The notes under the pieces were generated by a model that was not told where the DNA came from, ran no database searches, and saw only the letters and a list, made by a program, of their open reading frames with translations. DNA of 64,000 nucleotides, from positions 601,984 through 665,983 of the forward strand of contig CAZXMM010000001.1 of assembly GCA_964641255.1 (NCBI GenBank), written 5' to 3'. The position numbers and the translations under genes were made by a program. Within the stretch, counting starts at the first letter, position 1; every line of letters begins with the position of its first letter. Positions 6,889 through 63,790 of the stretch are shown one piece after another. The stretch is from an uncultured Gammaproteobacteria bacterium (GTDB lineage Bacteria > Patescibacteriota > Microgenomatia > JAMCZE01).

Positions 6889-9354
6889 ATGAATAAGCGC
6901 GTTGGGTTTGGACTCTTAGCCATAATTTTATTAATAGGTTCAATCTTTGTTTTAGGACTGACGCTATTTGTTTTAGGTAAAGACGTCCGACTGTTTAATA
7001 AAGCGGCCAGCAACCAGACTAGCTCTACTGTTAATAAAAGAGTCCAACTCCTCATTATTAATCCCTATTGGCCCGACCAGGGAAAAAAACTTATTGATTA
7101 TTACCGTAGCATTGGTTGGAAGTTCTATGATCCAGTGGATTTAACAAATGGCATTATCTCACGACTTCGGACAGTCAGCGGTGATTATGTAAATTATTCT
7201 ATAGCCGAAGTTAAGGAAATTGATATACCCAGAGCCCGAGACGGACACACTTATCATCCCTCTGAAGTAGCAAATTGTCTCCGAGATAGTGCATACTGCT
7301 ATACTGGAGCAGATAATCGCACCGATTATGCTCAGATATTAATTGACAATCAGTCTTGCGAGAAAAGAAACTTAGGAGAGATAGATGAAGTTTGGATCTG
7401 GGACGATGGAGCTGGGGCACCGCACGGGTTAGAATGGCTAATAGTCGGACGTGGCGCTTGGAGTGAAAACAATCCTGGTATTCATTTTAATGACAGGATT
7501 TCCTGTACTCGACCTTTACCCATCATGAATTTTAATTATCGAGTACCGATTGCTAGCGCTTTCCACTCGTTTGGCCACAGAGTAGAACTAGCTCTTTCAA
7601 GTGTATTCGGTTATGAGTTACTTGACGGCTATTGGGGGCCATATTTTGGAATATTTTCAACTCAGGAGGGGCTAAACCTATTTTCTGACTTTGGGATAAT
7701 TGATAAGTCTCTTTCCACTAGGGCCCGTTGTGGAAATGTGCATTTCCCACCGAACGCCAATTTCGACTCTGACTACGGTAATTACACTACTGTACAATCA
7801 GCCTGTAATAGTTTTTGTAATTTCCAAAATTTAGCTAATCCTTTATTTGAATCTGTTAACCAAAGTACATGGCTCGGTGAATTTAATTCCAATCTTTTAT
7901 CTACCTCTGAACTGGGTTATCAGACCTGGTGGCTACAGCATCTCCCAAAAGCCGCGGGAAAAACCAATGGTATCTTGAATAATTGGTGGAAATATGTTGT
8001 TGACTACGAAAATGCTCTTAATGATCCTGGTTTGGAAGGAGCTCCTAACGCCTACAATAGCTGTGTTGCCCCAATTACCCACGCTTGCGGCGATTTTGTC
8101 TGTTCTAGCGATGAATCCTGTTCTAGTTGTCCAAATGATTGTGGAGCTTGCTCGAATTCACCCTCCGGCCAGGAATCTACTAGCTCATTTAGCTCGCTAT
8201 CAGAATGCAAAATTGACATTTGGAGTCCCAACCGAGAAGCGAGAGTGGGCGATTATGTCCGCTATAAAATTAACTCTTACAAAGAGGGTGGTACCTTGGT
8301 AAATTATTCCACCAATGGCTCGTGTAATACAGCCACAGCCGGACCAGGTGACGATGTTGATGGTATTCCCCTCTGTTTTCGGACGATGGATCGGCAGGCT
8401 AGTTGCGGGGGCCACGCCCAGGTCACCAGCTCCGGCACGTGTTATATTCAAGCCTATTTTTCCAATGGTGAGCGCTGCCAGGCAGATATTGCCGTTCGAC
8501 CTGACAAGCTGCAAGTTAAAGTAGTCAAAAGTTCCGGGGGCAAATATACCCGTCCTTTTACTATTAGAGAGTTTTACTCTGCCGATTGCCCCAGTGGTTG
8601 TAATCAGAGCTGCTCTAATCCGGTGTGCCAAAATCGCAACGTGTTGTACGATCCTAATGGTTGCGGAGGAGTAGGTTGTGCCCAGTTTCCCGACTACACC
8701 CCGCAAGTTGGTTACCAGATCGGACCGTGTCGCAATTGTTCTGATTCTAGCAGTGTTAACTTACCGGCTAATCAAGTAGTAGCTAGTACAACTTGCGGCG
8801 AGTCGGATCGGCTGTGGACGCCCACTAGAGGAGGTGACAGTTGTACGATTACGATCGACGATGGGACAGGAACGTCGGTGCGGGGGTTTGTCTTCAAAGA
8901 CACTAACGGTAACGCGGTCTTCAATAACGAAGGCTTGTTAGGTAATATCAATATTGTTCTTTTTAAAGTGACCAGAGCTGGTTCAGACCGTGTCAGCCAA
9001 ACCGAATCGAGTAAAACTGGCAGCAGTAGTAATTTTCAATTTGGGGTGTCAGCTGAAGGCAATTATCAACTTAATCGGCCCAAATTACCGAGCGGTCGAA
9101 CTTTTATAAATTGTGGGGCCGTAATTCCTCCCAATCGGGGAAAAATTCCCAAAGACAACCACTATTTTTACTGCCAGGGTTTAAATGACAAGGGCAATAA
9201 ATACAAGCTGTTTATTAAAAAATGGACCCCAAGCGGAGAGCAGGCCTTTGTAGACGCGGGCAATAGTTTTAAGGTCCAGCGTGGTAAAACTGCCTACATT
9301 GACATTCCCACAGTTGAACTTAGTTCAGAATTAGGCCAACTAGAGTACGAGTAG
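6889..9354 (+). CDS. Large secreted/anchored Cys-rich protein (821 aa), function unknown
   Basis: N-terminal TM (LLAIILLIGSIFVLGLTLFVL). Dense Cys clusters (CGDFVCSSDESCSSCPNDCGAC; CPSGCNQSCSNPVCQNRNV). No catalytic motif recognised. Confidence 0.4.
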   Translation: MNKRVGFGLLAIILLIGSIFVLGLTLFVLGKDVRLFNKAASNQTSSTVNKRVQLLIINPYWPDQGKKLIDYYRSIGWKFYDPVDLTNGIISRLRTVSGDYVNYSIAEVKEIDIPRARDGHTYHPSEVANCLRDSAYCYTGADNRTDYAQILIDNQSCEKRNLGEIDEVWIWDDGAGAPHGLEWLIVGRGAWSENNPGIHFNDRISCTRPLPIMNFNYRVPIASAFHSFGHRVELALSSVFGYELLDGYWGPYFGIFSTQEGLNLFSDFGIIDKSLSTRARCGNVHFPPNANFDSDYGNYTTVQSACNSFCNFQNLANPLFESVNQSTWLGEFNSNLLSTSELGYQTWWLQHLPKAAGKTNGILNNWWKYVVDYENALNDPGLEGAPNAYNSCVAPITHACGDFVCSSDESCSSCPNDCGACSNSPSGQESTSSFSSLSECKIDIWSPNREARVGDYVRYKINSYKEGGTLVNYSTNGSCNTATAGPGDDVDGIPLCFRTMDRQASCGGHAQVTSSGTCYIQAYFSNGERCQADIAVRPDKLQVKVVKSSGGKYTRPFTIREFYSADCPSGCNQSCSNPVCQNRNVLYDPNGCGGVGCAQFPDYTPQVGYQIGPCRNCSDSSSVNLPANQVVASTTCGESDRLWTPTRGGDSCTITIDDGTGTSVRGFVFKDTNGNAVFNNEGLLGNINIVLFKVTRAGSDRVSQTESSKTGSSSNFQFGVSAEGNYQLNRPKLPSGRTFINCGAVIPPNRGKIPKDNHYFYCQGLNDKGNKYKLFIKKWTPSGEQAFVDAGNSFKVQRGKTAYIDIPTVELSSELGQLEYE

Positions 9355-9364
9355 TGTTTGAGTC

Positions 9365-9438
9365 TGGTGGGCGATAAGGGAATCGAACCCCTGTGGCTGC
9401 GATGTAAACGCAGTGCTCTACCATTGAGCTAATCGCCC
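9365..9438 (-). tRNA. tRNA-Val (anticodon UAC), CCA encoded
   Basis: Reverse complement GGGCGAT-TA-GCTC-AATGGTA-GAGC-A-CTGCG-TTTACAT-CGCAG-CCAC-AGGGG-TTCGATT-CCCTT-ATCGCCC-A-CCA. Confidence 0.85.
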
Positions 9439-10813: not shown

Positions 10814-11425
10814 ATGGCAAGTGAACTCCCGTATGCAAGGTATACTAACAATCTAGAACTCAGAGAGGTTGGGAACATTTACTTTGGAAAAGAATTTATT
10901 ACTTCTGACGATCTTCGACAAGATAGGGAGGCGTGGGGCGGTCTCAATGCTTTGTGCCATCTCTGGGATAAGCCCAGTTACACGCCTTTGCCTGGATATA
11001 ATTTGAGACCAGTCAAGCCGCCACTTGAGAGGCTGAGAGGACTTCTTTTGCGAAGAAGGGCGCCAGAGCACGCAACCCTTTCAGACGCAGCTGTTTTACG
11101 AATGCTTCTTTTTGGATACGTTCCAGTTACCCTTATTGGAGAAGGCGAAGATTGCTCTCTAATTGCGAGCTTGACAAAATATTCTCTCCCTAATGAGGCC
11201 AGAGAGGTTTACGGACTACACTTAAGACCCAAAAAGGGGAAGCTAACAATTGTCCCACCCCAAGTGCGAACGCAACGAACAGTAGCGGTAGATAGGTACA
11301 TAGAAGGTTCTAGTGGCATTGATATGGTAACGGGTAAAGGTACATTACGAATGCGAATAGATTTTACTCCAGGCGGACCAAGGCGAATTTTCAAGGCACC
11401 TGAGGCATACTTTCGAAGAAATTAA
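10814..11425 (+). CDS. Hypothetical protein
   Basis: ORF track. Same strand as the array and GC-rich. Confidence 0.35.
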   Translation: MASELPYARYTNNLELREVGNIYFGKEFITSDDLRQDREAWGGLNALCHLWDKPSYTPLPGYNLRPVKPPLERLRGLLLRRRAPEHATLSDAAVLRMLLFGYVPVTLIGEGEDCSLIASLTKYSLPNEAREVYGLHLRPKKGKLTIVPPQVRTQRTVAVDRYIEGSSGIDMVTGKGTLRMRIDFTPGGPRRIFKAPEAYFRRN

Positions 11426-11663
11426 CTCCACCCTTAATTTTCGGTATAAACTTTGGCTTAAAAGAAGCCCAAGCACATAAGGTAACTTAAAGTGGGTCAC
11501 ACCATAAAGATTTATGGGACTTACGGAAAGGGATATTCGAGAATTTCAGAGACGAGAGGATTCTGCATGGTGACCAAAGAGACTGGAAGCTAAATTATAT
11601 ACTGAACTACTGCATGTTTGCGACCTCGCACGTGTAGACCCACAGGGTAAAACGGCACTAGAT

Positions 11664-12137
11664 GTGGGGTGTTCAGAAGCAAACTTTTACCCCTATTGGC
11701 AAGCCATTGGTGGCGATCGCTACATTGGCATTGATGTTAGCAAGCCAGATATCAGAGTAGCGGCTACCAGGTATCCTGAGGGGCAATTTGTTAATGGTGA
11801 ATTTTTAACTTCCACTATTGGGGATTCCGTTGACTTTGTATTTCTAAGTGGCGTAGCCTGGTCAAGAGTTGAAAACTATAGTCCTAACGAATATCTTCTG
11901 CTTCTATTAGGAAAGGCCGCGTCAATTGCTAATGCAGGAATAGCGTTTAACTATTCCGTTGGAGCAGATAGTAAACGGATTCCTAGCTACAAGTCAGCGG
12001 ATGTATCTAAAATTTGTCGATTAGCTGCACCGCAGTGGAAATCAACCAAAAGAAGCCTAGGCTTTAGGACGAATATTGAAACAGCTTATCTTTTTAAGCC
12101 CACTAGGTCTCGGATTTTTACCCTGCCAGCTTTTTAA
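11664..12137 (+). CDS. Class I SAM-dependent methyltransferase. The N-terminus probably lies upstream (non-ATG start or frameshift).
   Basis: In-frame upstream translation gives ...GKTALDVGCSEANF...YIGIDVS (motif I, LDVGCG-like), which lies before the tracked GTG start. An in-frame TGA sits at 11571. Confidence 0.45.
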   Translation: MGCSEANFYPYWQAIGGDRYIGIDVSKPDIRVAATRYPEGQFVNGEFLTSTIGDSVDFVFLSGVAWSRVENYSPNEYLLLLLGKAASIANAGIAFNYSVGADSKRIPSYKSADVSKICRLAAPQWKSTKRSLGFRTNIETAYLFKPTRSRIFTLPAF

Positions 12138-12217
12138 AAAGGTCAGCCGCTGCACTTCAAAGTAGTCTGTACCAACCCCAGTTTTACTTCAACATATATC
12201 TTATAGTAGAATAACTA
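12138..12217 (+). repeat. Intergenic module copy U1 (degenerate 5' box, intact 3' box)
   Basis: 3' end TACTTCAACATATATCTTATAGTAGAATAACTAATG matches the 3' box consensus. Confidence 0.5.
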
Positions 12218-12586
12218 ATGGGCAAATTGGAGAATCCTGTCTGCCAGCCATGTCAGATCTTCGAAAGATGTAAAATCCGCAATCCAAAAGTTGCCAAGTG
12301 GGGATATGAACCTGCTATCTGGGACGACTGCGCTTATTTTACTTGTCTGCCTGCTTTGAGACACGCAGGGAAAGAATTAAATTCCGGGCGGCCCTTTAGA
12401 AGGTACAGCCTTTCCAACGGCAACACAATATTAGCCCTTAGTTTCGATACTCCCGATAAAGAAACTCGTCTCTTTTTCCAAGAAAAGTTGTTTCTCGCGA
12501 TGGAACAATTTATGGAGAAACAGGGAGGGGTTTTGAAAAAACAGGGCAGAAAACTTTTCCTCAATAAAGTGCACCCGGATCGATGA
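12218..12586 (+). CDS. Hypothetical cassette protein (122 aa)
   Basis: ORF starts directly after the 3' box. Confidence 0.4.
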   Translation: MGKLENPVCQPCQIFERCKIRNPKVAKWGYEPAIWDDCAYFTCLPALRHAGKELNSGRPFRRYSLSNGNTILALSFDTPDKETRLFFQEKLFLAMEQFMEKQGGVLKKQGRKLFLNKVHPDR

Positions 12587-12599
12587 ATCAGAGCTAGAA

Positions 12600-13233: not shown

Positions 13234-13438
13234 TTTGCACATCTGGAGCGAGGAATCTTGAACATCTGGAACCGCTTAGTGAATCGATAATTTCACCATA
13301 GAATTTAACTAAATTCGACCAAAAGCCTTTCTGCCAAACATACGTATTATATTTTCTAGTAATTCAATTTTCCTCATTGGTCGTTCTCTGTACTTCATTA
13401 TCTTGTTATTGAACTTAACTTTCTGTTAAGCTGCTAAT
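13234..13438 (+). repeat. Intergenic module copy U2 (5' box variant with ATCTGG insertion; 3' box absent)
   Basis: TTTGCACATCTGGAGCGAGGAATCTTGAACATCTGG. Confidence 0.55.
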
Positions 13439-14227: not shown

Positions 14228-14246
14228 AGCTAACTAGAAAAAATAT

Positions 14247-14385
14247 GCAACCGGAGCAGGGAACCTTGAACTTCTGGCAGAACTCATTGTTTTAAGCACA
14301 ACTTCTTTCAAATTAGCTTCAATTAGTGAACTGGGGTTTGCTTCGAGGTGTGTCTTATAGTATTATAGCGATACTAATACATCCT
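14247..14385 (+). repeat. Intergenic module copy U3 (partial 5' box, variant 3' box)
   Basis: TGCAACCGGAGCAGGGAACCTTGAACTTCTGG ... GTGTGTCTTATAGTATTATAGCGATACTAATACATCCTATG. Confidence 0.55.
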
Positions 14386-14532
14386 ATGAAACTTTTAGAG
14401 CAATTATTGGGAAGAGCCCCAGAACAAATCGAGATAGCGGGACATATTGCTGACTCTATATCAGCCCAGCAACAATTACAAAGAATTGCGAGAGAGGATG
14501 GTGATGTCGAATTACTACTTCAATCTACTTAG
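14386..14532 (+). CDS. Small hypothetical protein (48 aa from the ATG after the 3' box; the tracked ORF begins at GTG 14326 inside the box)
   Basis: MKLLEQLLGRAPEQIEIAGHIADSISAQQQLQRIAREDGDVELLLQST. Confidence 0.3.
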   Translation: MKLLEQLLGRAPEQIEIAGHIADSISAQQQLQRIAREDGDVELLLQST

Positions 14533-14620: not shown

Positions 14621-14653
14621 TGTGCACCTGGAGCGAAGAGTCTTGAACTTCTA
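14621..14653 (+). repeat. Intergenic module copy U4 (5' box only; the downstream slot has no clear ORF)
   Basis: TGTGCACCTGGAGCGAAGAGTCTTGAACTTCT. Confidence 0.6.
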
Positions 14654-15633
14654 AAACCACTACTTGAAACAATAATTCCAAGCATGGATTCGCCAAGATT
14701 CCATCTAGAAACTTTTCCAACACCAAGAATCGAGGCTATTGATTACATTTCTTGAAGACTTGTCGAGTAATCTCCCAGCAAGAGTTGTCTCCGGTTTTTA
14801 ACTTAGTAATGCTCTTACTTCTTCAATACTTTAACTCTTCTTCCCCTAATTGCGCAGGCTTGACCCAGGTTGCATCCATTCGTTCTACAAAATTCGTCGA
14901 CCGCCTCGTCCACAACACGCGCTAATTTTTGGGTAGTTTCTGGATATGCATTTAATTCAAGTACGGCGGGCTTGAGGTCGATACTAGTAGCTGCAAAAAT
15001 AAGTTTTGGCTCCGAAGAGTCCGGCTCATTGTCATTTACAAGCTCAAAATTTATTGGCGTTATTGTTAAATACTCGGTACCCGTGAGACAAAAGGCTGAA
15101 AAGGGTTCATCCGCAATTTGAATATGCTCAGTATGATAAGAACCTTCATCTTACTGTTGCAATGCTTGAGTGTCCAATTCCTTTGCCATTCCTAGTTATA
15201 CCATGGGGGCTACTCTTGGTAGTATTACGGGCGGGTTCCATACACTCGATGTTGACTTACGCAACCAAGAGATTGATTTTTTAAGTAAGGCCCAAATTGC
15301 TATAATTGCGTATGACTTGGAAAGACGGGTTGCAAATAATCGGAGAGGTGAAAGAAGTTTGCAATTATGGAGGACCACTACTTTCGCCACTAGATGAGGA
15401 GGGCAGAAAAGCCCCAAGGGACGATGCTTCTAGTACTATCTTTTGTATGCCTAAGCTATTCGCAGCGGTACAGTCACGTGACACGCGTTGCTTTCTGCTA
15501 GCTGGCGGTGTGTGCCCTCGTGGATACCTAGAAAAAAATTTTCCATTAGAACTTCGAAGCCGCCTCACGAAGGAGCGTTAATTTATGGACCCGCAGAAAA
15601 AACAAGAAGCCTGCTTTATAAAGCTAAAAACAC

Positions 15634-15758
15634 TGTGCACCTGGAGCGATGAGTCTTGAACTTCTAGTTGAGAGCATAGTGCTAAACACAATTATCTTCG
15701 ATTTACCTTCAAACAAGCAGAATTTTACTTCAAGATATATCTTATAGTATAATGAGGG
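15634..15758 (+). repeat. Intergenic module copy U5 (complete)
   Basis: TGTGCACCTGGAGCGATGAGTCTTGAACTTCT ... TTTTACTTCAAGATATATCTTATAGTATAATGAGGG followed by ATG. Confidence 0.7.
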
Positions 15759-16262
15759 ATGGGGTATTCGGACGCAGAAAGATGCAGAATTCAATTGGAG
15801 AAAAGTAGTGCCCGCTCTCGGCTCACCATATGCTCTCCATATGCTACGGATTGTATTTTGCCCTTCTCACTTACAGATGAGGCTACAAATGACTGGTACT
15901 TTGCTGCATATATGGGTTATGGCACTTTGACCCATCACATCCTGAGTGATTTAGCTCATAAAAGTCTAATTGACTATATAAGGCATAAACATCCATCAGG
16001 AGATCTTAAAAAAGTAGTAGAAACAGTCCACAGTCGAATAAATCAAGCAGAAATTGGAGTGATCTTTACAGAACAACATAGTGCTCAATATGACCATGCA
16101 TTTTCTGTGAAGAAATCGTTAAAAGGAGGCTTACTACTTTTCGATTTACATCAACCGGTACCTCAAAACGTTACTTTGAGCGATATTGTTGCCAGAGTTG
16201 TTAATAGAGGCAGCCCAAATCGGGACATGTTTGTAGTTAATAAAGGGAAAAGGCTACGCTAA
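15759..16262 (+). CDS. Hypothetical cassette protein (167 aa)
   Basis: ORF track. Start is 5 nt after the 3' box. Confidence 0.4.
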   Translation: MGYSDAERCRIQLEKSSARSRLTICSPYATDCILPFSLTDEATNDWYFAAYMGYGTLTHHILSDLAHKSLIDYIRHKHPSGDLKKVVETVHSRINQAEIGVIFTEQHSAQYDHAFSVKKSLKGGLLLFDLHQPVPQNVTLSDIVARVVNRGSPNRDMFVVNKGKRLR

Positions 16263-16284: not shown

Positions 16285-16419
16285 TGTGCACCCGGAGCGA
16301 TTAGTCTTGAACTACTGAAATCGCTTGCGGAATCAGTACTTTTAAAGTGGAAAGTTCCTACGTTTAGCTTAGAATGCAGTGAGTTTGCTTCAAGATATGT
16401 CTTATAGTATAATGGGGTT
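16285..16419 (+). repeat. Intergenic module copy U6 (complete)
   Basis: TGTGCACCCGGAGCGATTAGTCTTGAACTACT ... GAGTTTGCTTCAAGATATGTCTTATAGTATAATGGGGTT followed by ATG. Contains a GTCTTGAA / TTCAAGAT inverted repeat. Confidence 0.7.
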
Positions 16420-16779
16420 ATGGATGAAACTTATAAACCATGGGTAGTCTCATTTAGCGCAGACGGAATCTGTACACGAAAGGGCATATGCAAGTTGGCT
16501 GATATAGGAAGATGTAAATTTGGTACTAGGAGAGGAGCGCCTGTTCGAGGTAGTGCAGCAGCTGAAACTGCCGAAGTAGCCAGGGTATTTGCAGACGCCG
16601 ACTTACTAATAGACATTAAAACCGCTGAAGCTGAGCAACAAGAAATGTTTCCACGCTCAATTAAAAACGGGGAAGCCATTAGATGTGATATTCGGCCTCA
16701 CAATGTTGGATCATTGATGCAAAATACTGCAACGGGTGATAGGTACGCGTTGATTAAAGGGCGCTACACTAGAATATAG
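16420..16779 (+). CDS. Hypothetical cassette protein (119 aa)
   Basis: ORF track. Confidence 0.4.
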   Translation: MDETYKPWVVSFSADGICTRKGICKLADIGRCKFGTRRGAPVRGSAAAETAEVARVFADADLLIDIKTAEAEQQEMFPRSIKNGEAIRCDIRPHNVGSLMQNTATGDRYALIKGRYTRI

Positions 16780-16797: not shown

Positions 16798-16924
16798 TGT
16801 GCACCTGGAGCGAGGAATCTTGAACTGCTTGCGGAGAATATAATACTAAGCACGATTTTTTTAAATTAGCTTCACCAATGAATCAGAATTTAGCCTTGCA
16901 TTATATCTTATAGTATAATGCGGC
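16798..16924 (+). repeat. Intergenic module copy U7 (complete)
   Basis: TGTGCACCTGGAGCGAGGAATCTTGAACTGCTTGCGGAG ... CCTTGCATTATATCTTATAGTATAATGCGGC followed by ATG. Confidence 0.7.
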
Positions 16925-17635
16925 ATGATAAACAGATCGCTGGAAATTGGTGTAGGAGGTTCCAATCATCTAGATATTTATGCTCAAGGAAAGGGACGTA
17001 AAGTCTTTGGAATTGATATACGTCAAGATGTAGCTGAAAGAAGAAAAAAAGATACTCCCAATGGGGTCTTCATTGTAGCTGATGCTCATAATTTACCTTT
17101 TGCTAGTGGCATATTTGATGAAGCTTTCGCAACAAACTCACTGGAGCATGTAGATAATCCTGGTCAAGTATTAAGGGAAGCACATCGAACTTTAAAGCAC
17201 AAAGGAAGAATCACTATAGACGTACCACATCCTCGCTATGATCGTGTAATGGGCTGGCTAGCAAACAAGGATGGTGCTTACCATAGAGAAACTCACAAAC
17301 AAGTTTTTAAACCACAAGAAATTTTCAATATCACACAAGAGGCTGGATTTAAAGTTACTGAGTTTTCTACCAGAATGTGGAAATCTGCTGTTAAGCTAAC
17401 TACACGGTGGCTCGTAGCACGTGCTCTTGGAAAACTTGATTATGATCCAGACACAGGAGAGCTGCTTTCCTTGCCTCCTGAAAGAAAAGGGATTGTTAGA
17501 CGAGAAGTAGACCGACTATTATGGTTATCCGAAAACAAGTCGGCTTCGCCTAAGAGGTACTATTTACTCTCACTCCTGCGATTACCAAATCTCATTTACC
17601 CTTGGGCAACTTATATTGAAGCTATTAAAGAATAG
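16925..17635 (+). CDS. Class I SAM-dependent methyltransferase (Methyltransf_11-like)
   Basis: LEIGVGGSNH (motif I-like), GIDIRQD, LPFASGIFDEAFATNSLEHVDNP, KHKGRITIDVP. Confidence 0.6.
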   Translation: MINRSLEIGVGGSNHLDIYAQGKGRKVFGIDIRQDVAERRKKDTPNGVFIVADAHNLPFASGIFDEAFATNSLEHVDNPGQVLREAHRTLKHKGRITIDVPHPRYDRVMGWLANKDGAYHRETHKQVFKPQEIFNITQEAGFKVTEFSTRMWKSAVKLTTRWLVARALGKLDYDPDTGELLSLPPERKGIVRREVDRLLWLSENKSASPKRYYLLSLLRLPNLIYPWATYIEAIKE

Positions 17636-17638
17636 TTT

Positions 17639-18118
17639 ATGAGGGCAAAAGATAAACCTACATTACTGGACCGAGAACTTGGTTTAGCAAAAAGAAGTTT
17701 AAAACGTATAAGCGCTACACCCATAGAAAAAAATGGCATTCCCTCGCTTATGTATAAAGCAGGCATTTTAATAGCGCAAAGACAAATTGAACAAGGGGGA
17801 CTGACGGCTGCCCGCATAGCTATTTCACGAAGAATTGTGAGAGAAAGAAGTTTATTAGATAATATGGCAATACAAAACCTTACTGAAGCATTAATACGAC
17901 CCATTAACAAACAGCATGCTGCCTTTTATTACGGAGTAGATGTGCTTTTATACCTAGAAGAGCTAGAACGAAAGTGGGAGAAATATGCTGACCGTCGTGA
18001 CTGGGATGAAAGGATGGAAGTAAGACGGGAGGTTGAGTTTTATTTAACAGGTGATCAAAACGCAGTGGGAAATAAAGATCCACGAGGTAGATTAGTTGAG
18101 ATGCTTGAAGAAGCCTAA
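17639..18118 (+). CDS. Hypothetical protein, co-cassette with the methyltransferase (no module between them)
   Basis: ORF track. 4-nt gap to the upstream gene. Confidence 0.45.
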   Translation: MRAKDKPTLLDRELGLAKRSLKRISATPIEKNGIPSLMYKAGILIAQRQIEQGGLTAARIAISRRIVRERSLLDNMAIQNLTEALIRPINKQHAAFYYGVDVLLYLEELERKWEKYADRRDWDERMEVRREVEFYLTGDQNAVGNKDPRGRLVEMLEEA

Positions 18119-18191: not shown

Positions 18192-18329
18192 TGTGCACCT
18201 GGAGCGAACAGTCTTGAACTTCTCAAATCATCGGCTGAAGCAATAACTTCGAGCGCAACTTCATTTGAATTAGCTTCGGATTTTTCGAAAAGTTTTGATT
18301 TGGAGTATATCTTATAGTATAATGACCTT
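18192..18329 (+). repeat. Intergenic module copy U8 (complete)
   Basis: TGTGCACCTGGAGCGAACAGTCTTGAACTTCT ... TTGGAGTATATCTTATAGTATAATGACCTTGTG. Confidence 0.7.
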
Positions 18330-18707
18330 GTGTCTGAGCTCTCAAAATATGCCGATTTGATGCTAAGAAAGGTTCTTGTTACCTCTGAGGTTACAAAACA
18401 GACTTTTCCAGGTACTGACATGGCTCTTATCGGTTCTCTCGCTCGTTATCTCGCCGGTATAGTAATTCCAAATAAAAATGAATTTAGCTTAAGCTCTGAC
18501 GCTGACTTGGCGGTATGCTTTCCTTTCGACATATATCCTTTCACCGAATTTACGTTGGAAGACTTACTACGAGCTAAAATGAAAAACCGGAGAGTTACTA
18601 TGGGGGGCGAGAAAGGTCAAGTACAATTTGCCGCTGTGTCTGCATTAAATAAGCCAATGCCAAGATGGGCCCTAAAGGAAATAAAAATGTATGGTAAGAA
18701 AATTTAA
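18330..18707 (+). CDS. Hypothetical cassette protein (125 aa)
   Basis: ORF track. Confidence 0.4.
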   Translation: MSELSKYADLMLRKVLVTSEVTKQTFPGTDMALIGSLARYLAGIVIPNKNEFSLSSDADLAVCFPFDIYPFTEFTLEDLLRAKMKNRRVTMGGEKGQVQFAAVSALNKPMPRWALKEIKMYGKKI

Positions 18708-18741
18708 ACCTTAATAAAAGAGATTAAAACAGTATTTACGT

Positions 18742-18927
18742 TGTGCACCTGGAGCAGAAGTCTTGAACCGCTGAGAACTCTGACAGAATCGATCATTTCA
18801 AACGGGAACAAAGCTGGTTTAGACATAGGAGCTCCTCCACTCATCCCAAATACCGTACAACCCACCTACATTTACTAATACTAGCTTTGGCTTGATTTAA
18901 CAATTACTTCGCCTTATACTCACCGAA
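18742..18927 (+). repeat. Intergenic module copy U9 (5' box intact, 3' box degenerate)
   Basis: TGTGCACCTGGAGCAGAAGTCTTGAACCGCT ... CCTTATACTCACCGAAATG. Confidence 0.6.
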
Positions 18928-19992
18928 ATGCAGACAGGAGAGCTATTACAAGCAGAAGTAGCTGGCCTAATGATCTACGACGTCAAAGCTCTAGGGGGAC
19001 GTGCAGTAGAGCGGGCCAATATCACTGAGCGAGGACTCATGGATCAATCCGGCAGGCGAGATCACCAGTTTTTGGTGGTTGAAGCAGTTCCAATCGATGC
19101 TAATGGCGTTCATAAGTTTCTTCGACAAAATGACCACATAACCAGAGATACTCCGGAGGGAATGGCAGCAATGGCTAGAGTAATTCCCCAGTTGGACGGA
19201 CAGCAAATGCTTCTAACGTGGGATGGCAACAAAAAGGATGCCATTGAAATTGACAATCCTAGACAACAAGGTGGCCGAATGAAGGTCAACATATGGAAGC
19301 ATGACGTTAATGCAATTAATCAAGGAGATGGCGCCAACAAATGGCTAAGTGACCACTTAGGACATGAGGTTGTTGTCGTTAAGATGGATTCAGCAGACGC
19401 ACGCCCAGTCAGCGAAAAATACACGCCTAATGACAGTCGGGTCCTTGCTCAAGACGCCTATCCTATAAATACCGCTTTAATTGAATCCGCTAAAAGAGTT
19501 TCTGAACTAGCAGGAATGGATATTCCTTGGACTCACTATCGTCCTCAAATAGCAATTAAAGATATACCCGATAAATCGGAACATAAGATCTCTACTGTGG
19601 ATATCAGGAACAGAGCAAGTGATGAACTTATTGCAACAGCCATTCACGGTAAGCCTGGTGTCCGGTGCCGAGTGACCGGTGTTATTCCCAACTTGGGAAC
19701 TAGGCTCCCGGGTAATCAACCGTTAACGGCTTTGGGCAAAGAAAGAGCTTGGATCGATGGTGACGGAGATCTACAACTTATTTTTGCAGAAAACCTCATT
19801 GTCAAAGGCCAAGGAGAAATTGTAGTAGGGGATAAGTATATTGGGACATCGTCTCGCTATCCTCGTCTGGTTTATGGACCAATTGAAAAAATGAAAGCTG
19901 TTCAAAAAGAGGTCAAAAAAGAAATGGCCAAACGAGGCGGGAGCATATCTGCACGGGAAATGGCTTTTATAGTCCAATCTTTGGCAGCATAA
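18928..19992 (+). CDS. MOSC-domain protein (MOSC_N beta-barrel plus MOSC domain)
   Basis: N-terminus LLQAEVAGLMIYDVKALGGRAVERANITERGLMDQSGRRDHQFLVV resembles MOSC_N. A conserved Cys context (GKPGVRCRVTGV) follows. Confidence 0.45.
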   Translation: MQTGELLQAEVAGLMIYDVKALGGRAVERANITERGLMDQSGRRDHQFLVVEAVPIDANGVHKFLRQNDHITRDTPEGMAAMARVIPQLDGQQMLLTWDGNKKDAIEIDNPRQQGGRMKVNIWKHDVNAINQGDGANKWLSDHLGHEVVVVKMDSADARPVSEKYTPNDSRVLAQDAYPINTALIESAKRVSELAGMDIPWTHYRPQIAIKDIPDKSEHKISTVDIRNRASDELIATAIHGKPGVRCRVTGVIPNLGTRLPGNQPLTALGKERAWIDGDGDLQLIFAENLIVKGQGEIVVGDKYIGTSSRYPRLVYGPIEKMKAVQKEVKKEMAKRGGSISAREMAFIVQSLAA

Positions 19993-20288: not shown

Positions 20289-21056
20289 TTGATTTCTTCA
20301 CAACCTTTTTGGACTGTTGTTTGGGTTTCCGCCATTGGACTATACAATCTTTATCTTTATGCGGAACAAGACAAATTAAATGAAGTTACGGAGTTTATAT
20401 ACGAAAACCCAGATAAATTTACTAAATCAATTGTAAGTTCAACCTATTTCAGGAGTAACTTTTTAAAGTTTTTAGGAGAATATTTGAAACAGAGTAACAA
20501 GCGAAAAAGAGAAGCATTAAAGAAAATCCTGCTGCAATCATTATCTAAAGAGGAGGACGAAAAGTTTGAGATTGACCGGCTAAATAACGTATTAAGCCAA
20601 ATTTCGCTAGGAGCAATAAGAAATTTGCTTTTTATCAAATCTCATTTCATCCCTCAAATTGAAAAGGAAATAGAATATGAGGTACAAAGTTATGACCATA
20701 AGAACAATCCCAAAGAGATAACAAGGCTTAAAGACATTACAAAAGCTCGAAAAAATATCTCCGACTACATACAACGTTGGATTCATGATAATTTTGATCC
20801 CGATAGTCATATAGTTAAACAGAAGTATCATTATGATGATTCTTGGGATCAGGCACAAAAAATGAAATTTAATACTGACCATTCGATTAAGAAACATACG
20901 ATTGAAAAAGAAATACATTCTTACTGGCCTGAGTACGTAAGTTTAGGAATTATGAGTTCCGTAACCGATGGAGTAGGACAAATGGGAGGGGCTGGCGGTA
21001 CTGTTTATAAGCTGACGCAATTTGGAGAAAGCTTTATTGAATTCATAGAACCTTAG
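20289..21056 (+). CDS. Hypothetical protein (AT-rich, Lys/Glu-rich)
   Basis: ORF track. Confidence 0.4.
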   Translation: MISSQPFWTVVWVSAIGLYNLYLYAEQDKLNEVTEFIYENPDKFTKSIVSSTYFRSNFLKFLGEYLKQSNKRKREALKKILLQSLSKEEDEKFEIDRLNNVLSQISLGAIRNLLFIKSHFIPQIEKEIEYEVQSYDHKNNPKEITRLKDITKARKNISDYIQRWIHDNFDPDSHIVKQKYHYDDSWDQAQKMKFNTDHSIKKHTIEKEIHSYWPEYVSLGIMSSVTDGVGQMGGAGGTVYKLTQFGESFIEFIEP

Positions 21057-21063
21057 TAATGGT

Positions 21064-21175
21064 TGTGCACCATCTGGGACGATGTTCGTACCTACATAAC
21101 CTCCCAGATCGATCCTCTCGAAAAATCAACACTCATCACCGCAATTGCCTACTTCAAACAGAAGGAGGCTAAACT
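21064..21175 (+). repeat. Intergenic module copy U10 (variant 5' box with SD; GTG start)
   Basis: TGTGCACCATCTGGGACGATG ... CCTACTTCAAACAGAAGGAGGCTAAACTGTG. It starts 7 nt after the upstream stop codon. Confidence 0.5.
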
Positions 21176-57737: not shown

Positions 57738-57923
57738 ATGTTAACGCCAGAATTATTAGAGGAATTTAAGAGACTATACCAAAAGAAATACAATATTAGT
57801 CTTTCTGATGAAGAAAACACTCGACTGGCAACAGACTTTCTAAATTTAATGAAAGTTTTATTAAGGCCGAAGCCAAAAAAAGCCGAGAGTAATGAAAGTT
57901 ATCAATCGGCAAGCCAAATATGA
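57738..57923 (+). CDS. Small protein upstream of and overlapping (ATGA) the recombinase; possible directionality factor or regulator
   Basis: ORF track. 4-nt overlap with the recombinase start. Confidence 0.25.
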   Translation: MLTPELLEEFKRLYQKKYNISLSDEENTRLATDFLNLMKVLLRPKPKKAESNESYQSASQI

Positions 57924-59662
57924 GATTAAACGAATATACAAACGTGCAATCGTCTGTTCAACAATTACCTACCGTTCCCAGATATATCATGTACTGCCGA
58001 AAAAGCAGTGAGTCTGACGAGCGACAAATCCAGTCTTTACCCGACCAAATCACAAGTTTGACAAATCTTGTCAAAGGGCAAGGAATGAACCTGGTGGGAG
58101 AAGCCTTACAAGAATCCAGAACAGCCAAAATTCCAGGCAGACCAGTATTTGAACAGCTAATCCAAATGATAGAAAACGGCAAAGCAAACAGCATCGTACT
58201 CCTTAACCCCTCACGTCTTTCTCGAAACACAGTAGATACTGGAAGAGTAATTTATATGATGGATCAGGGAAAGCTTCTTGAAGTGATGACGCCTTATCAA
58301 ACATTTAAAAACAATCCTAATGATAAATTCATGCTCAATTTGCTATGTAGTCAAGCTAAGTTAGAAAACGACAATAAAAGCGTTAACATAAAAGAATCGC
58401 TGAAGCTTAAATCAGAACGCGGCATTTTCCCTGGTAAGGCTAGACCCGGTTATAAAAATAATCACGAAAAACCTCAAGGGCTAAGAGACATTTCTGCTCA
58501 TTCAGTTTATTTTCCGTTAATGAGGAAACTCTTCGACTTAGCCTTAACTGGAAACTACAGTGTTGAAAAACTGGTTGTTGAATCTGAAAAGCTGGGAATA
58601 CGAAGTTCCAAAAGTGGAAAGACTATTTGTAAAAGTTGGATGCACCGAATTCTCAGAGACCCCTTCTACACAGGGCGGTTTATTTACAACGGAAAGATAT
58701 TTAAAGGACAGCATCCGGCCATAATTAGCGATGAAGAGTTTAACCTCTTGCAAGATATTTTAGACGGAAGGACAAAACCAAGACAATACCGACACGACTT
58801 TGCTTTAAATGGAATTATTAAATGTGGAAGCTGCGGTTATTGCGTAACAGCTGAAGAACATACCAAGAGATATAAAAATGGCAAATGTCAGGTTTTTGCC
58901 TATTATCACTGCACTAAAAAAGGCAGCGACAAATGTGACCAACCCTATGTACGTACTTCCAAGTTAGAAGTACAGTTTGCTTCTGAGTTAACTCAATTAG
59001 AGTTAGATAAAGATTCTCTTGGATGGGCATATAAAGCTTTAGATCTTGTAAAAGAGAAAGACAGCGTAGTAACCAAAGATAGTTCTGAAGCTATCAAAAT
59101 TACTTTAGACGGAGTCAATAAACGAATTGATAATTTATTAGCTCTTAAAATCTCTCCGGTCAATTCTGACGGCAGCTTACTGTCTGATAGCGAATTCTCT
59201 GATAGGAAAAGAAAACTAATGGAAGAAAAAGACCAAATAATTCAGCAACTTTCACAAGTTAATTCCAATAATAATGAATGGATTGATTTGGCAGATGGCA
59301 GTTTTGAGTTTGGTCGATTAGCTTATGACAGGTTTATAAACGGGGACTCAGAGGATAAGAAAGTCATTTTTAAGACAATCGGCTCGAACCAAATCTTAAT
59401 AGATCAAAAATTGCAATTTCAGCTTCGAAAACTATTTCTCTATTATAAAAGGGGCGCAAATGGGGGAGGAGAGAAGAAAGACCCGCTCGTACCTAAAGAC
59501 GGACTGTTAAATCAATCTAATCTCAATTTTTCTGAAAAAAGTTCTCTATGGTGCGGACGAGAGGAGTTGAACCTCCACACCCTTGCGGGCACCAGCACCT
59601 CAAGCTGGCGTGTATACCATTTCACCACGTCCGCTGATTTTTTACAGAATCTTGTGCCGTGA
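57920..59662 (+). CDS. Large serine recombinase (resolvase catalytic domain + recombinase domain + zinc ribbon)
   Basis: YCRKSSESDERQIQSLPDQ catalytic Ser region. CGSCGYC...C zinc ribbon. The 3' end reads antisense through tRNA-Leu(GAG). Confidence 0.8.
   Translation: MRLNEYTNVQSSVQQLPTVPRYIMYCRKSSESDERQIQSLPDQITSLTNLVKGQGMNLVGEALQESRTAKIPGRPVFEQLIQMIENGKANSIVLLNPSRLSRNTVDTGRVIYMMDQGKLLEVMTPYQTFKNNPNDKFMLNLLCSQAKLENDNKSVNIKESLKLKSERGIFPGKARPGYKNNHEKPQGLRDISAHSVYFPLMRKLFDLALTGNYSVEKLVVESEKLGIRSSKSGKTICKSWMHRILRDPFYTGRFIYNGKIFKGQHPAIISDEEFNLLQDILDGRTKPRQYRHDFALNGIIKCGSCGYCVTAEEHTKRYKNGKCQVFAYYHCTKKGSDKCDQPYVRTSKLEVQFASELTQLELDKDSLGWAYKALDLVKEKDSVVTKDSSEAIKITLDGVNKRIDNLLALKISPVNSDGSLLSDSEFSDRKRKLMEEKDQIIQQLSQVNSNNNEWIDLADGSFEFGRLAYDRFINGDSEDKKVIFKTIGSNQILIDQKLQFQLRKLFLYYKRGANGGGEKKDPLVPKDGLLNQSNLNFSEKSSLWCGREELNLHTLAGTSTSSWRVYHFTTSADFLQNLVP
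59549..59634 (-). tRNA. tRNA-Leu (anticodon GAG), CCA encoded
   Basis: GCGGACG...CCAGC-TTGAGGT-GCTGG, long variable arm, GGAGG-TTCAACT-CCTCT, CGTCCGC-A-CCA. Confidence 0.8.
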
Positions 59663-60394: not shown

Positions 60395-62020
60395 TTACGT
60401 CAGCTGCGGGCGTTGTATACCGGTAATACGTCTCCTTGCCAAGGAGAAGACAGAGGGTTCGATTCCCTTCGCCCGCTCCATATCGGACTGCATTTGCAAA
60501 AATGCCTTTTTAGACCGATCTATAGAGCTATTTTCAGGTTCGAGCCACTCATTTTTCCGAATTACGCTTTTTTCAGTCTCTTTTATGTACACAAATGCGT
60601 TTTTGGCGTTGATTCGGACTATTCTGTCTTTCAACTCCAGGTTCGAGCCGAGAATCCTCAGTACCATTCTTTTGGCTTCCGTGTCGTAAGAATGGAAGAT
60701 TTTAGTGACGTTGGATAGAAATGCTAACACCTCTTCCATCACCTCAGTCCAGTTAGTTAAACCGTCGCTGGCAATGTTATCCTTTGTCTGTTTTTCTTCA
60801 ACCAAAAGACGACTTTTTTCCTTTTTATACTCATCATCGCTAATTAAACCTTCAATCTTCATTCCATAAAGGTTTTTCTTCTCAACTAAAATAGCGTCAA
60901 GGCGTTTGGTCAGTTTACTTTTCTGTCCGCGCTCGAATTCAAATTCCCTCTCGTTTCTTCTTCTGAGGTTTTTCCTGACCCAGGTCACAAACGTAGGTCT
61001 TATTTCCAAACTGTTGATAAACTCAGTTACCTGTTTCTCAACTTCAATTGCATTAAGGTATGGCTGACTACATGGTCCTTTTTTCTTAACACACCTGGCA
61101 TAGATGAAAGTCTGAGAGTTGCCGTTTTTATATTCCTTAGTTTTGCGGTCACAGGTAATTGCAGAGCCGCACTCCCCGCACTTGAGTGTTTTCATGAAGT
61201 AAAAGTCATTTGTAAATTGGTGTATCTTGGCTCTGCCATCAATGGTGTCCTGAACCCGATAATATTCATCAAGTGTTACCATTGGTGTGTGTTTTCCGTT
61301 AAATCGTTCTCCTACGTAGTCAAATAATCCGGCGTAGAAGATATTTCTAAAAAACCGGAAAGCTTCGGTTCTGCTTACCGGTTTGCCTGTTCTCTTGCTT
61401 TTTAGTCCCAAGGCAGTAATTTTCTGCAGAGAACTCTCGACAGTTTCATTGCCTGTCAGCATTAACTCCCACCACGACCGACACAGGTTAAACCGTTCCG
61501 GATCAGGAAGAACTTCCTTTTGCCCCTTCGGCTTTATGGGATCGTTAACATAACCTAATGGTGCTGAACCTGGCCTCCACCCGTTTTGAACTTTTGTATT
61601 CATTCCACGCTTAACATTATCGGAAAGATCTTTGCTAAATTTAGTTGCCATGCCGAACTCAATAAATAGAAAGGTTGAGTTATTTCGGTCGTAGTCCATT
61701 GTCGGTGTAACAATCTGCATTCCGTTATAGTCGACATGATCAATGAGGGTTCCGCCTTCTTTGGCATTCCGGCATAAACGGTCAGCCTTCCAGCAAATTA
61801 TATGGTTGGCTTCACCCTGAGATATCCTGGCAAGCATCTGCTTAAACTCCGGTCTCTTGTCCGGTCGTTTGGCTGATTTGCTCTCTCTATACACGCCAAT
61901 AACAGCGAAGCCTTTGTCCGCCGCTAGTTCGCTACAAATTTTTTCCTGATCATCAAGAGAGAGAATTTGGCGGTCTTTATCCTCGGAAGATTTTCTACAG
62001 TATATAAAACAAGTATTCAT
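60395..62020 (-). CDS. Large serine recombinase, paralogue of 57920..59662. Its 3' end reads antisense through tRNA-Gly(GCC).
   Basis: FIYCRKSSEDKDRQILSLDDQ. Zinc ribbon KCGECGSAITCD. Coiled-coil C-terminus. Confidence 0.8.
   Translation of the reverse strand: MNTCFIYCRKSSEDKDRQILSLDDQEKICSELAADKGFAVIGVYRESKSAKRPDKRPEFKQMLARISQGEANHIICWKADRLCRNAKEGGTLIDHVDYNGMQIVTPTMDYDRNNSTFLFIEFGMATKFSKDLSDNVKRGMNTKVQNGWRPGSAPLGYVNDPIKPKGQKEVLPDPERFNLCRSWWELMLTGNETVESSLQKITALGLKSKRTGKPVSRTEAFRFFRNIFYAGLFDYVGERFNGKHTPMVTLDEYYRVQDTIDGRAKIHQFTNDFYFMKTLKCGECGSAITCDRKTKEYKNGNSQTFIYARCVKKKGPCSQPYLNAIEVEKQVTEFINSLEIRPTFVTWVRKNLRRRNEREFEFERGQKSKLTKRLDAILVEKKNLYGMKIEGLISDDEYKKEKSRLLVEEKQTKDNIASDGLTNWTEVMEEVLAFLSNVTKIFHSYDTEAKRMVLRILGSNLELKDRIVRINAKNAFVYIKETEKSVIRKNEWLEPENSSIDRSKKAFLQMQSDMERAKGIEPSVFSLARRRITGIQRPQLT
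60406..60480 (+). tRNA. tRNA-Gly (anticodon GCC), CCA encoded
   Basis: GCGGGCG-TT-GTAT-ACCGGTA-ATAC-G-TCTCC-TTGCCAA-GGAGA-AGACA-GAGGG-TTCGATT-CCCTT-CGCCCGC-T-CCA. Confidence 0.85.
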
Positions 62021-62049
62021 GTTATTTGGTCTTCCAAGTAAGATTATTC

Positions 62050-62307
62050 TTACTTCTGGATTGTGTTGATGTTAACTCTATTACGTTTGTTTGCAAGTGA
62101 TTTTTCGATTAAGGTATCCACCAACAGCAATAATGCAGTCGCTTGCTCAAAAGCCTGCTCGTCAGTTAACCGTACTCCATACTCTTTAAGGGCTATTTCC
62201 TTAAACTCATCGAGTTCCTCTCTGGTTACGAGAGAGTTTGTAAGTATTAGGGTGTTACCGTTATTAGTTGTTTTCTGGGCAGCAATTTCTGTCATCTTTA
62301 TAACCAA
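62050..62307 (-). CDS. Small hypothetical protein
   Basis: ORF track. Confidence 0.3.
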   Translation of the reverse strand: MVIKMTEIAAQKTTNNGNTLILTNSLVTREELDEFKEIALKEYGVRLTDEQAFEQATALLLLVDTLIEKSLANKRNRVNINTIQK

Positions 62308-62711
62308 AGGTACAGAAACTGTCGATTTACCTCAATAAACTTTATGATTGGATTTGTCCACTTGTGTAAATATTCAGATGATTTGTGTACATTACTGATC
62401 AATTAAGCAGAATTTGCTATGATAAAAATATGCCGACCTTTTTCCATCAGGAGAAAAAACAGCCTTTTATGTACTCAGCGATTGAAACCCGTAGGAGCAA
62501 ACCAAACTATTCAGGTTGGGTTATTGGAGGTGTTTTGTTGACCGGCTTATTACTCGGGGCATATCTAATTCTTACCTAGTGCGATTGACTCTGAAAGGCA
62601 TTTTTGGTATATTTACAGTACCGAATGACCTTTGTGGTGAAGGTACCTTACTTTTAGGGAACTGTTGACATTAGCAATAGTGATTCAACTTAGCCACAGA
62701 GGTCGCTTTTT

Positions 62712-63347
62712 TTAGTAGGGCTTCCACAAATCTTCTTCCCGTTTTCTGATCAGCTTATAAAACGAATCGTCCTTTTTGTTGTATTTTCTGTAAATTGCTC
62801 CGCACACCATATCAGCCAGCTGTAAGAGGTTGTTGCTTTTGGAATCCTTGTGCCGGATCTCCCCAATGAGTTTATTCATATCAGTGTTTAGTTTTCTCTT
62901 CAGGTAATGATTGAATTTCTGAATGAAGGCTTTTGACTGTGCAGTTCTGTCAACAAAAAGTGAAGCGTTTTTCACTCTGCCCTGTGCTCTGAGGAACAAC
63001 TGATCAGTAACCAGCATATATAAACTTTCTTCAGGATTATGAGGCTCGCGTTGCGCGAGTTTTTCTTTATCAATGACTATCGTCCGGTACCGGAAGTCAT
63101 ATTTTGAGAGTTTGCTCAGAAACACAGTCTTATACTTATTCGATGTTCCCGTACTAAACTTAAACTCTTTATTATCGGGAAATTTGAGTTCCTTATGTAA
63201 TTGGTTAATCGCTTCGTTTGCTTCCGCCGCACTTTCAAGATTGTCGAAGATAACGATTGTTAAAACAAAATACCTACTGGAGGCAGTCTTCAGCTTAAAT
63301 CCGGTGTCCCCGGATTCATCCATAAAAATAAGCATCGCTAGCGGCAT
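62712..63347 (-). CDS. DUF3800-family protein
   Basis: N-terminal MLIFMDESGDTG is the DUF3800 hallmark (IDESG). Confidence 0.5.
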   Translation of the reverse strand: MPLAMLIFMDESGDTGFKLKTASSRYFVLTIVIFDNLESAAEANEAINQLHKELKFPDNKEFKFSTGTSNKYKTVFLSKLSKYDFRYRTIVIDKEKLAQREPHNPEESLYMLVTDQLFLRAQGRVKNASLFVDRTAQSKAFIQKFNHYLKRKLNTDMNKLIGEIRHKDSKSNNLLQLADMVCGAIYRKYNKKDDSFYKLIRKREEDLWKPY

Positions 63348-63790
63348 AAGCCCCCCTTTAAAACAACGTTCACCCCATACTGAGTAAAATCCTCTGGTAT
63401 AAAAAAGTAGTCGGCTATTTCTGCAGCCGGAAGATGTTTAACTTTCCCGAGTTCAGACTTTGGCATAAGAAGTTCGGCAGCGAAACACTGTGCTTCATGT
63501 TCCTGCTTAAAGGCAGTGAACTGGTCCCTGCTTTCAAAATAGAAGTGATTTCCCTGATGCAGGAAGTGATGTCCTAAGGCGTGAGCAATTAGTTCGCGCT
63601 GTTTTTTGGGACATTCGTTTTTGTTAATGCCGATACAGTCACCGAGATAGACCTCTTTCACCCTTCCATGAAACGACCAACTATCAAGTATCAGCTCTTC
63701 GCCGTCAATAATTGTCTGTAAATTAATCGGGGCAGTAGTCAGGTTGTACTTGCGCAAAACCTGCCTAGCCTTTTTTTGGGCTTTTATCAT
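63338..63790 (-). CDS. ImmA/IrrE-family zinc metallopeptidase
   Basis: HEXXH in ELIAHALGHHFLH. Upstream partner is the XRE gene. Confidence 0.6.
   Translation of the reverse strand: MIKAQKKARQVLRKYNLTTAPINLQTIIDGEELILDSWSFHGRVKEVYLGDCIGINKNECPKKQRELIAHALGHHFLHQGNHFYFESRDQFTAFKQEHEAQCFAAELLMPKSELGKVKHLPAAEIADYFFIPEDFTQYGVNVVLKGGLCR

Follow-up and report, generated by a model that had tools for sequence, protein, structure and literature searches.

The promoter-early stem-loops (PeSLs) of T4-type phages, in which a stem-loop terminator is followed by a Shine-Dalgarno (SD) sequence and a start codon at the 3' end (PMC2839356, PMC4122927), are, by mode of action, the closest described analogue of the repeat discussed here. 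This repeat, hereafter the module, is some 115-135 nt long (~125 nt) and lies between co-oriented open reading frames (ORFs) on the plus strand at 12.1-18.9 kb of a 64-kb stretch of contig CAZXMM010000001.1; we refer to the whole of this stretch, 64,000 nt of bacterial chromosome, as the window. In common with PeSLs, the module is a short intergenic repeat with a strong sigma-70-type promoter (predicted, in our case), it stands directly upstream of unrelated genes without assigned function in a hypervariable region, and its shared sequence is a plausible point of exchange between these genes. In PeSLs, genes are shuffled by recombination between copies, which also gives rise to mini-circles. 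The array region differs between the genome of the window and that of the relative introduced below. Unlike PeSLs, however, the module has no stem-loop, no terminator-like site and no SD sequence, and it is longer, with an additional conserved 5' box ~100 nt upstream and a coding-like centre. It also resides in a bacterial chromosome and not in a T4-like phage, and a blastn search against plasmids and phages returned no match for it.

Integrons offer a second comparison, sharing with the array a one-directional series of unrelated small ORFs and a recurring element of ~60-140 nt with conserved ends and a variable centre. Nevertheless, the module fails every tested defining feature of integrons. 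Its ends carry neither a GTTRRRY core nor complementary R'' and R' boxes. Five modules folded as single-stranded DNA, on both strands, gave z-scores of -1.77 to +1.45 against shuffled sequences, with no hairpin, and the RNAalifold consensus of the modules (-1.73 kcal/mol, 6 pairs) revealed no conserved structure. Pfam and NCBIfam models, run over ORFs of at least 110 aa throughout the 64 kb, detected no tyrosine recombinase; two large serine recombinases at 57.9-62.0 kb were the sole recombinases present. As there is neither a hairpin nor an integrase, the module is not an attC site and an integron reading was ruled out. Furthermore, whereas integron cassettes depend on Pc, the units of the array each carry a promoter-like site of their own.

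Orphan C-terminal toxin/immunity modules, as known from contact-dependent inhibition (CDI) and Rhs systems, occur in tandem, each consisting of a start-less coding fragment that is conserved at its 5' end and variable thereafter. An unrelated small ORF follows, which needs expression of its own, and the modules of the array are alike in these respects. In contrast to orphan toxin modules, the variable part here is only ~20-25 residues long and leads to a conserved C-terminus (SRYIL); a full-length parent gene was found neither in the window nor among called proteins nor in public data; and one of the downstream genes encodes an ordinary S-adenosylmethionine (SAM) methyltransferase.

Leaderless genes of bacteria typically feature a Pribnow box 6-8 nt from the starts of first operon genes, with SD sequences within operons (PMC6028130). 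Those of the Actinobacteria and Deinococcus (GeneMarkS-2 group C, PMC6028130) share with the window a -10 element near the start without an SD, and SDs inside operons. They differ from the present case in that the promoter here is part of a repeated, transferable module, and in that the genome is of only ~0.95 Mb. Leaderless genes as such are well known; what appears to be new is a repeated, apparently transferable module predicted to supply a leaderless promoter, together with its internal reading frame. Taken as a whole, the repeat array matches no described system.

The promoter-like 3' box and the cassette starts

A module comprises, in order, a 5' box, a variable centre and a promoter-like 3' box, and its ends read TGTGCAC... 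and ...TATAATG. The first-pass annotation of this DNA had described the 3' box as carrying tandem TATAGT and TATAAT hexamers, and this description holds. The sequence TCTTATAGTATAAT occurs exactly four times in 64 kb (15740, 16400, 16906 and 18310, in the modules U5 to U8), with one-mismatch copies at 12199 (..TAGAAT) and 14353 (..TATTAT); all others have three mismatches. In U5, TATAGT (15743-15748) shares one base with TATAAT (15748-15753), which lies 18 nt downstream of the -35-like hexamer TTTACT (15724-15729), and the pair agrees with the consensus at 10 of 12 positions. The five nucleotides GAGGG then lead to the start codon. The remaining TATAAT hexamers are found at 16408-16413 in U6 (16285-16414), 16914-16919 in U7 (16798-16920) and 18318-18323 in U8 (18192-18324), the last of them 17 nt from TTGATT.

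The cassette starts proposed at 15759, 16420, 16925 (each ATG) and 18330 (GTG) are the first start codons after the upstream stop, and two are fixed by homology. The 167-aa product of ORF 15759-16262 has a full-length homologue of 26% identity in a related genome (locus L020), aligned from residue 1, which confirms the start. The 236-aa SAM methyltransferase encoded at 16925-17635 meets position 1 of the Methyltransf_11 profile at residue 6, and its homologues all begin 5-7 residues before motif I. The other two ORFs span 16420-16779 (119 aa) and 18330-18707 (125 aa). From TATAAT to these four starts the distance is 5, 6, 5 and 6 nt, and from TATAGT 10-11 nt. At the 12199 copy, TAGAAT is likewise followed after 5 nt by an ATG (12218), and here too homology fixes the start, the window ORF and its L020 orthologue both beginning MGK(L/S)ENP; the module of L020 itself reads TAAGAT-5 nt-ATG. 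A start codon is thus located 5-6 nt after the second hexamer in six of the seven intact 3' boxes (five window copies and that of L020). Since the cassette proteins bear no relationship to one another, this fixed spacing was not inherited with the genes.

No SD stands at a usable distance before the cassette starts, as had been claimed; in U5, GAGGG abuts the ATG with no spacer. The ATG within the box (15752-15754 in U5) had been described as a decoy that is out of frame and stops within a few codons. It is indeed out of frame, but the frames that it opens in the four exact copies run to 18, 11, 27 and 12 codons, hence 11-27 codons and not a few. Overlapping the -10 element, it lies upstream of the predicted transcript whichever hexamer is taken as the -10, and it is missing from three of the seven copies. 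For these reasons we assign it no role, and a function for it is unlikely.

Which of the two hexamers would serve as the -10 element is of some consequence for the predicted start of transcription. TATAGT had been proposed previously, but TATAAT is the more likely candidate. It is a perfect consensus hexamer, it lies 17-18 nt from TTTACT, TTGCTT or TTGATT, and TAnnnT is always kept among its variants (TATAAT in four copies; TAGAAT, TAAGAT and TATTAT in one each). Its distance of 5-6 nt to the start codon, moreover, falls within the range of 4-8 nt seen at 11 other genes of the window, which the 10-11 nt of TATAGT do not. TATAGT is invariant in all seven intact 3' boxes, but this may have a cause other than promoter function, as the last sense codon and the stop codon of a reading frame within the module (TTA TAG) lie in it. 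A promoter scan recovered TTTACT-18-TATAAT at 15724-15753 and TTGATT-17-TATAAT at 18295-18323, each agreeing at 10 of 12 positions, as well as TTTACT-18-TAGAAT at 12183-12212. Transcription tends to start on a purine (+1) that is preceded by a pyrimidine (-1), and the presence of a pyrimidine before the start codon in 9 of 12 genes with a -10 hexamer near the start fits this preference. The leaderless or nearly leaderless geometry put forward in the first-pass annotation, as well as a promoter-like site for each cassette in distinction to promoterless integron cassettes, are thus borne out at the level of sequence.

We consider it rather probable that the 3' box is a promoter giving leaderless cassette mRNAs. 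It would act as a promoter of the sigma-70 type, using the -35 hexamers, spacer and TATAAT given above, and RNA polymerase would begin transcription at the first base (A or G) of the start codon that follows after 5-6 nt, give or take one base. Every cassette gene would thereby yield a leaderless mRNA of its own, making a ribosome-binding site unnecessary, an arrangement by which this organism probably also expresses many first genes of operons. The module would amount to a portable expression adaptor that allows expression of whatever ORF directly adjoins its 3' edge. Leaderless translation requires mRNAs that begin with the start codon, so each cassette would need its own promoter at a fixed distance, and the modules show this layout.

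Several observations weigh against this reading. The copy at 14353 is an exception to the spacing, lying 19 nt before the ATG at 14386, and U8 would require a leaderless GUG start. The base at -1 is a purine in U5 and in the 12199 copy, and the -35 elements are weak, agreeing at 3-4 of 6 positions. Promoter-like sites in the region (19, with 15.6 expected from shuffled sequences) are overall no more frequent than expected, and the argument for a promoter therefore rests on conservation and spacing and not on the scan. The conservation of the 3' box may itself be explained in part by the embedded frame (TAT ATC TTA TAG) or by a recombination function. In L020, the homologue of ORF 15759 and the methyltransferase orthologue stand without a preceding module. 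Lastly, in a genome poor in SDs, the absence of an SD is by itself no proof of leaderless mRNA.

The same layout recurs elsewhere in the genome. Leaderless expression had been regarded as unusual beside the strong SDs of the window, a view contradicted by the 53 window gene starts that do not stand behind a module. Only ~7 of the 53 have an SD at 4-12 nt, such sequences occurring mainly inside operons, while in 11 a -10-like hexamer precedes the start by 4-8 nt, as compared to a background of 6.4% for ATG trinucleotides in general (p = 4.5e-4). A stricter definition of the hexamer retains 9 of the 53, with a background of 3.2% (p = 4e-5). Examples (spacings in nt) are the NfeD gene starting at 2347 (TATAAT-7-ATG, with TATACT-7-ATG in the orthologue of the relative) and the genes starting at 10814 (TTGACT-17-TATAAT-5-ATG), 12896 (minus strand, TATAAT-8-ATG) and 28892 (minus strand, TATTAT-7-ATG). 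A histidine kinase starting at 32237 and a response regulator starting at 32913 (both minus strand, TAGAAT-6-ATG) have starts anchored by domain alignment and by a receiver domain from residue 3, respectively. The gene at 18928, which follows the last module, possesses its own TTGATT, 17 nt, TATACT, 7 nt and ATG. Further starts with a -10 box at 5-8 nt and no SD were noted in flanks of the same genome and in the relative (L020:423, L020:5895, L027:9965 and L028:1179, the last two on the minus strand). Given the enrichment of this layout at other gene starts, that of the cassettes is ordinary for this genome; the cassettes are probably leaderless, without being exceptional in this respect. For annotation in this lineage, the starts of first genes would need a -10-box model in place of an SD model, and gene callers tuned to SDs may misplace them.

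The reading frame and the 5' edge of the module

The 5' box is the best conserved part of the module and has a sharp 5' boundary; in U5 it occupies 15634-15666 and reads TGTGCACCTGGAGCGATGAGTCTTGAACTTCTA. At up to three mismatches its 27-mer is found in five modules only, with no occurrence expected by chance. From this edge runs an open frame without a start codon, which in U5 (15634-15747) reads CAPGAMSLELLVESIVLNTIIFDLPSNKQNFTSRYIL and closes with TAG at 15745-15747. Corresponding frames are present at 16285-16407, 18192-18317, 14244-14360, 14621-14755 and L020:10774-10893. The frame (TGT GCA CCT GGA GCG ...) encodes CAPGAxSLELL, a variable stretch of ~20 residues (~20-25) and F(A/T)SRY(I/V)L, its stop being the TAG of TATAGT.

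Five of the six full copies in the window are free of stops in this frame, as compared to 2-4 stops in each of the other two sense frames; the sixth, U7, has its frame interrupted by one 1-nt change within a T run. Box-to-box lengths (114, 132, 111, 120 and 123 nt) are all multiples of three, and shuffling the variable columns produced a stop-free frame in just 16-26% of trials per copy. The L020 copy is likewise open (114 nt) and scores 58.5 bits against the profile of the window copies. In six of seven copies, an in-frame stop occurs 1-6 codons upstream. Ratios of nonsynonymous to synonymous substitution (dN/dS) were 0.48-0.73 in all pairs, but one control frame has a similar median, and we do not count these ratios as proof of coding. 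Four-fold degenerate sites of the 5' box show no variation, which indicates that the box is constrained at the level of DNA.

A profile of the module peptide had no match among 5.8 billion proteins in a word-indexed search, nor among 1.84 billion representatives in an exhaustive one. A six-frame search of the window placed the peptide in the modules only, and no full-length parent gene was detected there or among the called proteins of the genome. Joining the frame to the upstream ORF by readthrough or frameshift was rejected, as the last in-frame stop lies downstream of the stop of that ORF, and its relation to the frame of the upstream ORF (+1 in five of seven cases) is not significant. An alternative start in the box would open an 8-codon TTG frame that is not conserved, and near-cognate start codons at position 6 in five of seven copies were judged to be due to chance.

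The only relative found to carry the module is L020, reached via the methyltransferase cassette (81% identity); other orthologues show 55-82% identity, and other homologues of the methyltransferase are without a module. In L020, tRNA-Val (8726-8797) and tRNA-Leu(GAG) (11260-11346) are 2.5 kb apart, and the interval contains three small ORFs, the methyltransferase gene, one module and the orthologue of ORF 12218, directly before tRNA-Leu. In the window, the same tRNA genes (9365-9438 and 59549-59634) are 50 kb apart, and tRNA-Gln and tRNA-Val, adjacent in the relative, are separated by 4.2 kb. These differences in distance point to several insertions having accumulated at a hotspot bounded by tRNA genes. 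In this one comparison between genomes, the unit of module and ORF 12218 is kept in both while its neighbours differ.

Downstream of ORF 12218, homology between the window and L020 stops at ...TAA(A/T)GTGC, which is the 5' edge of the box. What follows GTGC is the 3' end of tRNA-Leu in L020 and a 5' box in the window. Read on the minus strand (15645-15666 in U5), the box contains GTTCAAGAC, which matches the T-loop consensus GTTCRANNC and sits within a layout of 7 + 5 + 7 + 5 nt resembling an acceptor strand and T arm. A scan of the 5' box with tRNA models gave no match even at E <= 10; its identity to the local tRNA-Leu is ~62% over 24 nt, and a 22-mer of tRNA-Leu occurs solely at the tRNA itself. 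The single homology end and the short motif make the 5' edge of the module a tentative candidate for a recombination junction, one that may go back to a tRNA end.

Two isolated pieces of 5' box lie apart from any 3' box. One (12568-12590) is found at the 3' end of ORF 12218-12586, where L020 has the 3' end of tRNA-Leu, and the other (21063-21086, TTGTGCACCATCTGGGACGATG) follows ORF 20289-21056. From these it is evident that the array used to reach further and that the boxes can exist apart. Directly after tRNA-Val, L020:8850-8890 reads TCCTATAGTTATATAATGAGGGGCTGG and resembles the 3' box of U5 together with the first bases of ORF 15759. No ORF begins there at a module-like spacing, and this segment may be the remnant of another cassette junction.

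Competing accounts of the array

The module as a whole, being the sequence shared between unrelated cassettes, would probably also be the point at which they recombine, either through homologous exchange, as in PeSLs, or by the action of a recombinase on the 5' box. Promoter activity, the exact start of transcription, leaderless translation and a role in recombination are all predictions drawn from the sequence, and similar observations can be accommodated differently. The cassettes may instead be co-transcribed from one or a few upstream promoters, with the A/T-rich, unstructured 3' box acting as a region of SD-independent initiation and its likeness to a -10 element being incidental. We regard this as unlikely, while acknowledging that all cassettes are co-oriented and that terminator prediction found no site in any module, for which reason read-through transcripts probably exist in any event. 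ORF 17639-18118 (159 aa), the second of the methyltransferase cassette, begins 3 nt after the methyltransferase stop with no module between, and the L020 homologue of ORF 15759 is translationally coupled through an ATGA overlap. Furthermore, most genes of the window have no SD, with or without a -10-like hexamer nearby, so that SD-independent initiation on leadered mRNA must exist. Co-transcription nevertheless leaves unexplained the strict 5-6 nt between unrelated ORFs and a perfect TATAAT that is itself preceded, at 17-18 nt, by a -35-like hexamer, the retention of TAnnnT in variant copies, and the enrichment of the same distance between hexamer and ATG at other genes. On a read-through transcript, the cassette ORFs would lack an SD and the out-of-frame ATG of the box would compete with the true start.

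The tRNA-bounded setting lends itself to an account in which the module is mainly a relic of recombination, be it an att-type site derived from the 3' end of a tRNA or the 3'-terminal part of a gene since lost, copied along with each insertion. The conservation of the module would then reflect this history, and any promoter activity would be secondary. The difference between 2.5 kb and 50 kb in the interval harbouring the array, the conjugative element with a serine recombinase that abuts tRNA-Leu (described below), the T-loop match and acceptor-like layout of the 5' box and the end of homology at GTGC would all be in keeping with this, as would the invariant four-fold degenerate sites. So would a stop-free frame whose length changes are in phase in six of seven copies and whose stop lies in the 3' box. 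We nonetheless consider such a relic quite improbable. The 5' box is not recognized by tRNA models and bears limited identity to tRNA-Leu, and no integrase adjoins the array. No parent protein was found among the 1.84 billion representatives, where an annotated parent gene should have been detected, given the 58 bits that the window profile assigns to the L020 copy. A pure relic also leaves the fixed distance between hexamer and start codon unexplained. Also quite improbable, in our estimation, is an undescribed cassette system with the module and its gene as the mobile unit, in which the TGTGCAC edge would be the site of crossover for a recombinase supplied from elsewhere, the 3' edge a leaderless promoter, and the frame a functional, exchangeable coding segment. 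The TGTGCAC edge would then be related to the 3' end of the tRNA-Leu that bounds the hotspot, and the frame might, for instance, encode an interchangeable C-terminus that becomes complete on recombining with an as yet unsampled expression locus.

The favoured reading, a leaderless promoter within the module, would have some practical and conceptual consequences. Should transcription starts map to the start codons, the module would constitute a natural plug-and-play leaderless adaptor, that would let an adjoining ORF be expressed in the absence of any ribosome-binding site. In a genome relying on leaderless initiation, it would show a way for incoming genes to be expressed immediately, and it would extend the idea behind PeSLs, that of a regulatory repeat doubling as a recombination point, from T4-type phages to a bacterial chromosome. 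The start-less and stop-free frame of the module presents a concrete puzzle of its own.

Further copies, searches and genomic surroundings

Within the window, module copies are confined to one 7-kb stretch of a single strand (all coordinates below refer to the plus strand unless stated). Besides U5 to U8, these include a 3' half at 12150-12213 (TTTACT, 18 nt, TAGAAT at 12207-12212), which precedes ORF 12218-12586 and is the counterpart of the L020 module, and a 5' half at 13236-13300 with a degenerate 3' part. The exceptional copy noted above occupies 14244-14367, with TATTAT as its second hexamer at 14361-14366. A copy at 14621-14755 retains an intact 5' box and open frame, but its 3' end has diverged, it has no -10 element and decayed sequence follows. 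The last copy (18740-18878) has a 1-nt deletion in its 5' box and a diverged 3' end. Separately, the segment 14760-15630 looks like decayed coding sequence.

Other classes of element were considered and set aside. A structured RNA, including the guide RNA scaffold of TnpB-type systems and transfer-messenger RNA (tmRNA), was rejected, since Rfam models at the gathering threshold matched tRNAs only; a scan at E <= 10 added three chance matches, and ARAGORN found no tmRNA. A miniature inverted-repeat transposable element (MITE) or Correia-type element is contradicted by module ends that are not complementary and by the placement of all copies at one locus on one strand. An invertible switch acting via the inverted repeat TCTTGAA...TTCAAGA was likewise discarded, the 3' arm not being retained in U7 and U8.

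Searches for relatives in wider collections returned little. The exact pattern of the 5' box had no match in species-representative genomes, JGI metagenomes or IMG/VR, and a codon-degenerate version produced 11 chance matches to unrelated sequence among metagenomes and none among viral contigs. The flanking 821-aa protein, used as a query, retrieved only distant loci without modules. The cassette proteins are singletons or without homologues; nine array proteins had no match in PHROGs, and PADLOC reported only generic domain matches for the cassette proteins.

The region at 26000-59700 (~26-59.5 kb) is an integrative conjugative element, encoding a Replic_Relax relaxase-like protein, VirD4, VirB4, type IV secretion system (T4SS) pilins, PrgI and an M23 wall hydrolase, and carrying copper resistance as cargo. 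Its large serine recombinase (ORF 57920-59662) runs ~110 nt into tRNA-Leu(GAG), on the opposite strand. The second large serine recombinase (60395-62020, minus strand) occupies the end of a prophage (60395-63790 and L028) on the right-hand side of the tRNA cluster. Beyond the edge of the window, L028, from another assembly of the same organism, encodes a terminase, two DNA methyltransferases and a sigma factor. A methyltransferase-like gene at 11568-12137 is probably a frameshifted pseudogene, since its SD-led ATG (~11568) and the ORF that bears the domain (11664-12137) are in different frames.

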